This document shows, piece by piece, positions 54,001 to 57,000 of a stretch of DNA of 64,000 nt. Source of the DNA: Escherichia coli O157:H7 (GTDB lineage Bacteria > Pseudomonadota > Gammaproteobacteria > Enterobacterales > Enterobacteriaceae); assembly GCF_013167455.1 (NCBI RefSeq), contig NZ_CP038328.1. One strand, given 5' to 3'. A program made the position numbers. The number at the start of each line of letters is the position of its first letter. The first letter of the stretch is position 1.

Positions 54001-57000
54001 CGCACACTCTCGCAGAGGAGTCTCCCTGTCTGGCTGCGGTCTCTGTTAATGCAGGAATACGGTGACGATACGGCGCATCAGCAAAACTTAGTTCAGGCAC
54101 TGAGTGCGGATATAGTCCTGTGCCCCTTCCAGCTGCTTCTGCATTGTCATCAACCGTTCTCTGAGGATGAAATAATCCCGTTCAGCGGTGTCTGCCAGTC
54201 GGGGGCCGGTTGCATTATCCACGCCGGAGGTGCCGGTGGCTTCACGCACGGTACCGGAGCAGGTGGCGTTGATCCGCAGGCGCTTACGACCAGCGGCAAC
54301 ATCAGCACGCAGAGTTTCATTTTCAGCTCTCGCATCGGCTAACTCCCTCGAGTATTTTGCATCGAGCGCAGCAACATCACGCTGGCGCACCTGCATGTCA
54401 GTAATGGTGGCATTCGCCTGTTCCAGCTCTCTGGCTTTTTTATCGCGCTGCGCTTTGTAGGTGAGCGCGTTGTCACGGTAATGGTTTGTTGCCAGCCACA
54501 GCGCACCATAGCCAACCGCCAGGACAATAATCACCACACACAGAACACGGTTCATCTCTCTTTCACCCCACCAGTCCCGATAACGTCAGGACTCGCCAGG
54601 CGGTGGAAAAGAAAATGGCAACCAGCATGACTAAAAATGAAATGCCGACAAGTACACAGAGGCTCTTCACCAGCGTTATGAGTTTATCTGATATCATTAG
54701 CCACCCCATCAATCCGCCTTTGTTATTTTCCCTTTGCCTGTATCAGCCAGGACAAAATCAATCAGCATATTCGCTTCATTTACCAGCGTACGGATTTTTG
54801 ATACATGCGCGGCTTTAACCTGTTTCCACTCATTCAGCCCGGTAGCAAACACACTGGCAATGTTTTTATCCCGTTTCATGTCAGCACAAGCCTGGTTGAG
54901 TTCTTCCATCACGCTCATTTTACGGGGATTAACGACAAAACCCTTCGTCCAGTACTCGTAAAGAACATCGTCGCACTCTTCCTGATACCGGATGACCTTA
55001 TCGCGGATTTCGGGTTTTACTTTGTTGGGATTAATGGTTTGTAGCCAGCCGGCAAGTTTTCGAAGTGGCATGGACACCATATTGCGTTGTTTCCCATCCT
55101 CAGCAACCATAACGATTTCCGTTATAGTTGACGCAAAACGCTGTCTTAACTTAGCCAACTGTGATTGCCAGGCCAGCCCCATCCCCGCAACGACAGGTTT
55201 CATGGGAACGTATGGTTCGCCATTATGGTTAACTACATAAAGAGAGTTGCCGTGAAACGGCACGGCCATCATATTCATCGGTTATTTCCTTTTAGTGATG
55301 AACCTTGTCTCACAGGAATCCAGCCCACAGAAAGGCACCGACAGCCAAACCGGTATCCTCAAGGGTCATCCTGAAAGGTTCTGTGTTGTGAGATGCGCGT
55401 GAGATGCGCAGAAATGACAAAGGCATCATTACGGTGCCTGAGTGTTAAACAACTGTTTTGACTTTATTCACTTACATTTTGCCAATTTGCAGGATTTCGT
55501 GTTATCCGTCCATGTAAGCAAACCTCATTTTTCAGCAAAATATTCTTCTTATCTGTCGATTCCCCAGCACGCCAGCGCGCTCTCCTGGTCACGACGGGAT
55601 ACCTGACCGTAACAGTTGTTTGAACGAATACGGCAGTCTCTGCCACCGTCCTTAATCCACCAGCGAATAGCTTCGCAGGCACCTTTTCGATCACCTGCAT
55701 TAATTCGTCTGTAAAACGTCGACGGGAAACACTTACCGGGACCAATGTTGTACGGACAGAATGACGCGATCCCCGCTTTCTGGGGTTCGGTCAGCGGCAC
55801 TTTGATGTTTTTCTCCACCCATGCCAGCGCCTTATCACGCTCAATGGCGTTAACCCGGTCGCATTTTTCCTTCGACAGCTTCATGCCAGGAATAACAGGC
55901 TTACCATCCACCCGGGTGGCTCCACGGCAGATGGTCCAGATACCCGCACCATCACGGTATGCTGTGGTGTGGTTACCTTCCTTTTCATCCAGAAACTGGT
56001 CGAGGATTTCAGGCGCAGAAGCACCTGCGGCAATCAGCGCCAGAACGGCAGCCGATAAACCATAGCGGAGTTTCCTGCTCATCAGCTTACTCTCCCCGTG
56101 CCGCCTTACGCCGGTCTTCTTTAATCTTGAAATACAGGTTCGTCAGATATGTCAGCAGCCCAAACAGCAGACTCCCCAGCACGCCTATTGCCGCCCACTG
56201 AGACGGGGAAACCCTGTCCAGCAACTGCAGGAACCAGTAGCCCGTTCCCACCGCTGACGTGGTGTATGACACACCTGTTGTGATTTTTTCCATCTGGTAC
56301 ATACCCCGTCTCCCGCAATCCGGAAGCTCACAACAATAAAAAAGACCACCGGCACACACCGATGGTCCCTGACGCATGCTTACATCATCATGTCGCTGTC
56401 CGGTGTGGGGTCACCGCTATCTGAAGCACTCCCCTCACCCGCGATGCCTTCCGGCTCCGGAGCTGCCGGTGCGCCCAGCAGCTCATCCAGAATGGCATCA
56501 ACCTCTGCATCAAGACGCGCTTCCAGGTTATGGCGAAGTTTCTGTTTCAGTGCGCTCCGGACTTCTTCAGAGCGCAGGACTTCCTTCACTGCTTCAGCAG
56601 TGACCAGGGATGTAATTTCTGACATGGGATTTTCTCGTCGAAAGGTGTGATTAAGAAAGTTGCCGCTAAATGAGCGGCTCTTCGGGTTTGCTTCCGGCTG
56701 ACTGACTGGCGCTGATTTTCTCAGCGGCCCTTTTGTCAATCTGTCTGCGCCAGAAGTCACGCATGGCCCGGTATCCACCCGAAAGGAGATACAGCACACA
56801 GACCACCGTACAGAAGTACAGCATTAACTGGTTCAGAAATGTCATAATTTCTTTCCGTTATTGTTGACAATAAGAACTGTTTTCATTTAAAAAACCAGAG
56901 CACGAAAGTATCGTTCCTTTATTTTTTCTCCATAGGTATTACCACCGCCAGCGTCCATTCCTGTCGCTGGCGGTTTTTTTATCATGCCGCAGTGTCTGTG

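Follow-up and report, generated by a model that had tools for sequence, protein, structure and literature searches.

The ant gene of an Escherichia coli O157:H7 lambdoid prophage and its leader, a candidate cis-regulatory RNA

In a 64,000-nucleotide stretch of Escherichia coli O157:H7 DNA (contig NZ_CP038328.1, assembly GCF_013167455.1; the whole stretch is called the window), a minus-strand phage lysis cassette carries a 189-aa open reading frame (ORF), ant, between the endolysin gene R and the spanin genes Rz/Rz1. The gene itself is already known, having long been annotated in Shiga-toxin (Stx) phages, and is not a discovery. The RNA that precedes it is the only element for which no prior description was found, and it is presented here as a candidate new cis-regulatory family, a lead and not a finding. 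This leader of ~113 nt may represent an undescribed class of cis-regulatory RNA that would gate potentially toxic Bro-network regulators in the late operons of Enterobacterales. As for the product, ant is tentatively read as a late-operon gene of the Bro/KilA-N network, encoding a DNA-binding regulator akin to Rha and KilA-N proteins, rather than an antirepressor of the canonical P22 type.

The interest thus lies in the leader and in correcting a functional label that has been over-propagated; the gene is otherwise ordinary. "Antirepressor" has been copied through hundreds of annotations without a functional check, and no publication was found in the literature on the function of the 189-aa protein or on its leader. 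A conserved leader that is predicted to sequester the Shine-Dalgarno (SD) sequence would offer a handle on how such genes are silenced in lysogens, and it may be a new RNA family worth curating.

The leader upstream of ant

The leader is read on the minus strand and consists of the following elements.

55276..55439, minus strand: the leader as a whole, comprising a terminator-like hairpin, a small GC hairpin, a CA-rich linker and a hairpin of ~90 nt
55412..55439, minus strand: weak terminator-like hairpin, AGGCACC-GUAAU-GAUGCCU with one mismatch, followed by UUUGUCAUUU (read from the sequence)
55394..55410, minus strand: small hairpin hp2, TGCGC-AUCUCAC-GCGCA (from alignments)
55379..55393, minus strand: unpaired CA-rich linker, UCUCACAACACAGAA (read from the sequence)
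55288..55378, minus strand: long irregular hairpin with a lower stem, a 6-nt internal loop on the 3' side and an upper stem of ~12 bp

The ATG of ant is preceded by AAAAGGAAATAACCG, in which an SD sequence, AAGGA, lies 8 nt before the start codon. An earlier reading of this DNA from sequence alone (the sequence-only reading) had described the SD as a good one. It is predicted to be base-paired inside the conserved hairpin, where CCUUU pairs with the AAAGG of the SD (55288..55292) at the 3' base of the long stem. The minimum-free-energy and centroid structures of the window leader agree. When leaders were folded independently of one another, 19 of 20 gave a single rod of 18-40 pairs, composed of a lower stem of 18-22 bp, an internal loop of 4-7 nt that is mostly on the 3' side, and an upper stem of ~12 bp; in these folds, the SD is located within or abutting the 3' base of the lower stem.

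Across genera, the layout of the leader is kept while its primary sequence diverges. The 5-6-bp GC hairpin hp2 has compensatory variants in Proteus (TGCAC/GTGCA), Serratia (GCGCC/GGCGC) and Xenorhabdus (GCGTAC/GTGCGC), and a CA-rich stretch occupies the linker position in all aligned lineages. A terminator scan did not flag the hairpin at 55412..55439 in the window; clear intrinsic-terminator-like sites were called at the homologous position in Serratia, Xenorhabdus and another E. coli phage.

Plain MAFFT alignments analyzed with RNAalifold yielded the upper stem only, because the lower stem was misaligned, and they were replaced by two covariance models (R1 and R2) that were built on E. coli copies and iterated once. 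The match in the window spans 55276..55388, ~113 nt. All 23 of the loci that encode short two-domain orthologues of ant and have enough upstream sequence are matched, and eight further matches lie upstream of Rha-type, KilA-N and unknown genes; directly upstream of longer P22_AR_N proteins the model found no match. Covariation was measured on a 31-sequence alignment fitted to the model, with 500 shuffles and with the 3' partners slid by 1-3 columns as controls:

Cells in standard pairs: observed 93.6%; shuffles 75.8%, with 0 of 500 reaching the observed value; slid 34.5-55.8%
Pairs changed on both sides: observed 22 of 28; shuffles 13.1; slid 4-9
Covariation score: observed 0.62; shuffles 0.27; slid 0.08-0.13

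On the reverse strand, the covariance matches score 16-19 bits, compared with 100-135 bits on the sense strand. A sense-strand RNA is also supported by the folds made without an alignment and by the large number of G-U pairs.

The leader is not confined to ant. Over the last ~135 bp ahead of the ATG, identity is 88-89% to the stretch in front of a KilA-N gene and a Rha gene, both located after Rz/Rz1 in P22-like prophages of E. coli. By blastn this segment is present in 305 phage records, where the annotated genes include ant, KilA-N (ST104 orf45), Rha (VSe13) and an HNH endonuclease. At the equivalent locus, a gene of the Rha + ORF11CD3 type (5e-26) stands behind the same leader, as do other genes of the Rha type beside lysis genes. 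A KilA-N-type gene shares the leader as well; no ORF11CD3 match was found in its C-terminus. Extra copies of the leader also occur at L024:4802, L034:6267 and L163:4234 of the comparison loci.

Rfam 15 gave no gathering-score match at the leader, C4 and isrK included, and at E<=10 returned only two chance-level matches there (E>5). A leader peptide (a 19-25-aa ORF, MTLED...) was considered and excluded for lack of conservation of the small ORF: its ATG or frame is absent or interrupted in Photorhabdus and Serratia, in which the nucleotide architecture is kept.

In the proposed class, the unit would begin with a terminator and a small GC hairpin; after a CA-rich linker, it would end in a long two-stem hairpin that has a conserved internal loop on the 3' side and occludes the SD. 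Such a unit would gate regulators of the P22_AR_N, Rha and KilA-N types, the products of which are potentially toxic, and where stop and start codons overlap it could gate the spanins too. In concept, this resembles P1 c4, P22 sar and the P4 CI/seqA RNA (Rfam C4 and isrK), in which RNA-level control blocks the translation or elongation of a dangerous member of the Bro network. However, the window element differs from these in being a predicted cis-acting, SD-sequestering hairpin without an Rfam match. In shape, there are other parallels. The lambda N leader and RNase III sites of the T7 R1.1 type have two coaxial stems around an asymmetric internal loop, and in tisB, ribosome standby uses an unstructured stretch 5' of a structured ribosome-binding site. 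The stems, asymmetric loop and 5' CA-rich stretch of the window leader are similar to these, by structural analogy only.

The ant protein

The ORF predicted by the sequence-only reading, 189 codons at 54709..55278 on the minus strand with an ATG start, was confirmed. The surrounding 2.4-kb cassette is 100% identical to those of VT2-Sakai and VT1-Sakai, in which the ORF bears the annotation "ant: similar to antirepressor of bacteriophage P22". The ant products encoded by 933W and by dozens of Stx1 and Stx2 phages match the protein at 100% identity. In 933W and in Sakai Sp5 and Sp15, ant is placed downstream of stx in the late operon, and O157-type genomes carry the gene in several copies. Of 5426 complete E. 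coli genomes, 849 contain the segment; these carriers have a median of 3 copies and a maximum of 9. Its PGAP name is "phage antirepressor N-terminal domain-containing protein", and 126 of 279 surveyed Stx phage genomes list Ant families (PMC8136144).

Two Pfam domains are present: P22_AR_N (PF10547) at residues 5-113 (E=1.4e-45) and ORF11CD3 at residues 122-164 (E=5.5e-6). In PHROGs, the match is to phrog_524, "anti-repressor Ant" (2e-112), and covers profile positions 7-210 of 317 only. The same two-domain architecture is seen in all of the best 120 of 2580 homologous protein clusters, which reach down to 60% identity and whose members have 151-212 aa, mostly 187-191 aa. The hosts include Escherichia, Salmonella, Photorhabdus, Xenorhabdus, Serratia, Proteus, Providencia, Arsenophonus, Sodalis and Hamiltonella. 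Against 11 homologues, dN/dS is 0.07-0.19, indicating purifying selection; by this measure, and by the conservation of length and domains in >100 clusters, the ORF is a genuine coding gene. Other searches were negative: NCBIfam has no family for ant, a sequence search of PDB chains with ant returned nothing relevant, and in PADLOC no defence family matched ant or its Rha and KilA-N counterparts.

The Bro/KilA-N domain-shuffling network was reportedly described by Iyer, Koonin and Aravind in 2002. Among 90 diverse P22_AR_N proteins, ORF11CD3 is present in 31, P22_AR_C in 9 and ORF6C in 2, a mix of partners that, judged from the sequences, is the domain shuffling of this network. The ant product combines a network N-module with a network C-module, and its homologues swap domains. 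Both P22_AR_N and ORF11CD3 are among the 10 Pfam families assigned to the Bro network, whose proteins are usually gene-regulatory, an example being PLE CapR (PMC10111431).

An AlphaFold2 model built on a 90-sequence alignment has a mean pLDDT of 83.5, with values >90 over most of the N-domain. Residues 1-112 are modelled as a beta sheet with helices and residues 123-180 as a two-helix hairpin. In the model, the N-domain has a KilA-N/APSES-like fold; its likeness to Mbp1 (1bm8/1mb1) and to the N-domain of CpGV Orf22 (4ye7) is one of predicted structure, at 9-10% sequence identity. A first model, built on 12 sequences, was dropped (pLDDT 65; Foldseek matches were non-significant, with Mbp1 on top).

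Antirepressor or DNA-binding regulator

The sequence-only reading had called the gene antirepressor-like, and the formal searches did return similarity to that family (P22_AR_N, phrog_524 and 50% identity to P22 Ant). This similarity resides in the N-terminal domain, however; P22_AR_C is absent and ORF11CD3 is found instead. P22 Ant has 300 aa, with P22_AR_N at 14-125 and P22_AR_C (PF10548) at 200-272. Beyond the first 127 residues, BLASTP detects no similarity to it, the query carrying ORF11CD3 where P22 Ant carries P22_AR_C, and by tblastn no P22_AR_C is encoded anywhere in the window. What the two genes share is the P22_AR_N domain, a place in a late-transcribed region and strict post-transcriptional control, by sar in P22 and, as predicted, by the leader in the window. 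They differ in length (189 vs 300 aa), in the missing P22_AR_C and in location, since the window gene is in the lysis cassette. The control of the immI type is likewise absent: near the window ant there is no arc, mnt, Pant or sar, its neighbours being R, a small ORF and Rz, and in place of the sar antisense RNA there is the predicted cis hairpin. Two of the four features that define the P22 Ant family are thus missing.

Another Stx-phage gene named Ant, also related to P22 Ant, is the early ant of phi24B (Fogg et al. 2011, PMC3064807). That gene is a different one, located upstream of qut at the early-to-late junction, and its product shares the C-terminal 104 residues of P22 Ant (82% identity), not the N-domain; by knockout and complementation, it speeds induction (PMC3064807). 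Because the window protein resembles P22 Ant in the N-domain only and phi24B Ant shares the C-terminal part, an action of the window ant on a repressor is an extrapolation. The family resemblance to an antirepressor is real; on sequence grounds, antirepressor function is somewhat doubtful.

The preferred reading takes its support from elsewhere. Proteins of the Rha type (Phage_pRha + ORF11CD3) and the KilA-N type, of 175-180 aa, are of the same size and occupy the same spanin locus in P22-like and Stx phages, and their genes share the ~113-nt leader, which the covariance model detects and which in E. coli is 88% identical at the DNA level. The Rha type and the window ant also have the C-terminal ORF11CD3 domain in common. 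The differences are that their N-domain belongs to another Pfam family and that they usually come after Rz/Rz1 and not before. Thus, the predicted fold, the exchange of the N-domain with those of Rha and KilA-N proteins behind the same leader, and the lack of P22_AR_C all point to a DNA-binding regulator. Such a protein would act late, as a dimer; the interchangeable N-domain would recognize DNA, the ORF11CD3 hairpin would be a common oligomerization or effector part, and "antirepressor" would be a name inherited from the N-domain. For an Ant that consists of the N-terminal half only and is interchangeable with Rha and KilA-N proteins, DNA binding becomes as relevant as repressor binding.

Several observations weigh against this picture and the gate that goes with it. 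The identity to P22 Ant of 50% over the first 127 residues is substantial in BLASTP (E=1e-38), and we know of no mapping of the repressor-binding domain of P22 Ant, which could turn out to be the N-domain. The stability of the window hairpin is unremarkable (z = -1.28, not significant), so that the case for the hairpin comes from covariation and the independent folds, and the covariation counts stem from an alignment that was itself fitted to the model. In addition, the promoter scan described below addressed the sigma-70 consensus only, non-consensus promoters being outside its scope.

The possibility of a true antirepressor is placed next, the DNA-binding regulator being only slightly ahead of it. 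Here P22_AR_N would bind repressors of the CI/C2 type belonging to its own or to co-resident lambdoid prophages, and the late product would lock in lytic development and cross-induce neighbours, even those with non-cleavable repressors. This is doubtful, but several points speak for it. The identity to P22 Ant and the domain and PHROG matches given above are what would be expected, the ant of P22 is, by annotation, also within the late region under tight post-transcriptional control by sar RNA, and a double lock on expression suits a product that would induce prophages on leakage. The multiple copies of the ant segment in carrier genomes (median 3, up to 9) fit as well, several lambdoid prophages of O157 Sakai have repressors without a peptidase domain (PMC2669165), and trans-acting antirepressors reportedly coordinate prophage induction in Salmonella (PMC3121763). 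(The "antirepressor" column of PMC2669165 was rejected as evidence on ant, since it refers to Cro.) On the other hand, ant lacks P22_AR_C, the sole domain common to the two functionally supported Ants, those of P22 and phi24B, and the replacement of P22_AR_N by Rha or KilA-N N-domains behind the same leader and at the same locus would be odd for a repressor binder. Furthermore, the phage's own repressor would already be gone by the time of late expression, and neither a LexA box (by eye) nor a promoter was seen from which a lysogen could express ant. If ant does cross-induce co-resident prophages, this would matter for the release of toxin and for how prophages are mobilised in polylysogens.

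Expression of ant and opening of the hairpin

In the region upstream of ant, no sigma-70-like promoter was found in the four lineages scanned, and inspection by eye revealed no LexA box. The sequence-only reading had considered ant a moron, co-expressed with the late genes at lysis. Co-expression is plausible for transcription, but translation looks to be gated separately by the leader hairpin. The term moron is also only partly apt. In lambda, Rz directly follows R, and ant is indeed an extra gene in that slot, the contents of which differ in E. coli G8; a moron's own promoter and terminator are not seen, however, as there is no sigma-70-like site, the terminator is upstream of the gene instead of downstream, and its stop codon is linked to the ORF that follows. 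Moreover, ant has kept its position in the lysis region across several genera.

For the favoured DNA-binding regulator, two locks on expression are envisaged. The gene would be transcribed only by Q-antiterminated, terminator-resistant polymerase from pR', and even after readthrough, its translation would need the hairpin to be opened or cleaved. A double lock of this kind could be explained by a product that is harmful if made in a lysogen. Related proteins offer precedents: P22 Ant is lethal when overproduced, the host is killed by KilA of P1, and in hosts that lack IHF, Rha blocks the growth of phage. Candidates for opening the hairpin are RNase III cleavage, ribosome standby on the CA-rich linker, and a trans-acting RNA or protein.

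The linker also includes the motif CACAACA (55384..55390, minus strand). This is the consensus of GcvB R1 targets (PMC4104026). An sRNA directed against GcvB, AgvB (59076..59137, plus strand; RF02702, 96.5 bits), is encoded in the same prophage, 3.7 kb from the leader. That the leader is opened via this motif and AgvB is pure speculation.

The lysis cassette and its variants

The lysis cassette is of the phage-21 type and contains, in order, S, R, a 270-bp stretch, ant, a small hydrophobic ORF and Rz/Rz1.

56087..56302, minus strand: holin S, phage-21 type (PF04971, 7.2e-33)
55549..56082, minus strand: endolysin R, a phage lysozyme with a hydrophobic N-terminus (PF00959, 6.4e-25; phrog_7)
55279..55548, minus strand: non-coding leader of 270 bp between R and ant
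54709..55278, minus strand: ant, the 189-aa ORF with an ATG start (Pfam and PHROG matches)
54563..54697, minus strand: small hydrophobic ORF of 44 aa, start MISDKLITLVKSLCVLVGISF (phrog_4906, 5e-30)
54088..54555, minus strand: Rz i-spanin (PF03245, 4.9e-50; phrog_13)
54150..54335, minus strand: Rz1 o-spanin, inside Rz (PF06085, 1.7e-21)

From its sequence, the N-terminus of R would be of the signal-anchor-release (SAR) type. The location of ant between R and Rz, as claimed in the sequence-only reading, is correct, but the gap between these genes also holds the 270-bp leader and the 44-aa ORF. The latter forms a tight chain with ant on one side and Rz on the other. Its true start is an internal ATG, as some variants have stop codons 5' of that ATG; it is conserved among E. 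coli phages, being annotated in BP-4795 and E. coli G8, and in G8 it is present without ant (L003 3001..3132). No Pfam, NCBIfam or PADLOC family matched it, and it could be a lysis-linked small membrane protein.

Most of the relatives examined adjoin spanin genes, even where the lysis genes are non-homologous. In Serratia (66% identity), a phage lysozyme gene is followed by a 220-bp gap, ant and spanins of the DUF2570/LysC type; in Proteus (62%), the order is holin, a putative endolysin of 134 aa, a 199-bp gap, ant and Rz; and in Photorhabdus (78%), ant comes after Rz with a gap of 170 bp between them. In Xenorhabdus and Arsenophonus, a lysozyme or a 131-137-aa protein without a Pfam match is encoded upstream of ant, and in Xenorhabdus, Rz, Rz1 or LysC is encoded downstream. 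More distant homologues in Acinetobacter (~50%) sit among tail genes. Because the position is kept across genera, the unit of ant and gap is regarded as an old resident of the lysis/late region and not as a recent accident. One E. coli Stx phage of the P13374 type (L129) has a second copy of the leader with a 180-aa protein (2209..2861), downstream of ant and the small ORF, that is near-identical to the Rha + ORF11CD3 protein of L004. This second module is presumably located just after Rz/Rz1, the intervening genes being unannotated; if so, two modules of leader and Bro-network gene would flank the spanin genes.

The ORFs of the cassette are tightly packed. In the window, the ant stop codon leads into the next frame by TGATG, and in Serratia (L009 4561..4564) and one other lineage (L168), the ant stop overlaps the i-spanin start as ATGA. 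Such an overlap suggests that spanin synthesis is translationally coupled to ant and hence possibly to the leader gate.

This packing bears on the idea that ant is a selfish or neutral passenger, a mobile module of leader and gene that landed at the endolysin/spanin junction and persists because its deletion would break the coupling to the spanins, not because it benefits the phage. The ATGA or TGATG overlaps do tie ant to the downstream genes. The slot is variable, too: in E. coli G8, a 60-aa hypothetical ORF replaces ant between R and the small ORF (L003 2804..2986), and in BP-4795, S and R are separated by an additional gene of the YdfR family (L005 1766..2110). In addition, the leader travels with unrelated genes, one of them annotated as an HNH endonuclease. 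Nevertheless, a passenger is unlikely given the strong purifying selection on the whole protein, to about 60% identity, and an elaborate conserved leader with compensatory changes, which argues for a selected function.

A role in lysis itself, in which the protein or its leader would control spanin production or the timing of the last lysis step, is more improbable still. It would account for the spanin-adjacent location in five genera with different spanin families, for the overlap of the stop codon with the i-spanin start in Serratia and L168, and for the terminator and hairpin that part holin and endolysin from ant and spanins. Yet the ant sequence has only domains of regulator families and shows no hydrophobic or transmembrane segment, signal peptide or lipobox, the module is found after Rz and not before it in Photorhabdus and in P22-like prophages, and the distant Acinetobacter homologues are among tail genes. 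Finally, that ant is a truncated remnant (a pseudogene) of a full-length P22-type gene, as its 189 aa against the 300 aa of P22 Ant and the partial phrog_524 match might suggest, is effectively refuted by the 187-191-aa form with its distinct ORF11CD3 being the conserved state in >100 clusters, by the low dN/dS and by a C-terminal half that is modelled as a confident helical hairpin; as judged from these sequences, the short form is not a truncation of full-length Ant.

The surrounding prophage

Downstream of Rz, 51037..53633 (minus strand) contains ORFs of 158 aa and 707 aa at the place expected for terminase, with families unassigned. VT2-Sakai is identical through the lysis cassette and has different terminase genes there (L001 6617..9110). 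Since the identity ends past the cassette, a mosaic junction is placed just after Rz/Rz1. On the other side of the cassette, there is no room for stx genes between an esterase gene (56982..58928) and the RNA genes beyond it; this prophage of an O157-type strain therefore appears to be a lambdoid one without stx.

Besides AgvB, the following Rfam matches in the window reach the gathering score.

20911..21124, minus strand: STnc560 (281.9 bits)
59138..59330, minus strand: STnc100 (149.9 bits), adjacent and convergent to AgvB
59417..59476, minus strand: a weak tRNA-like match (37.3 bits)
61767..61942, minus strand: sok antitoxin RNA (120.1 bits)

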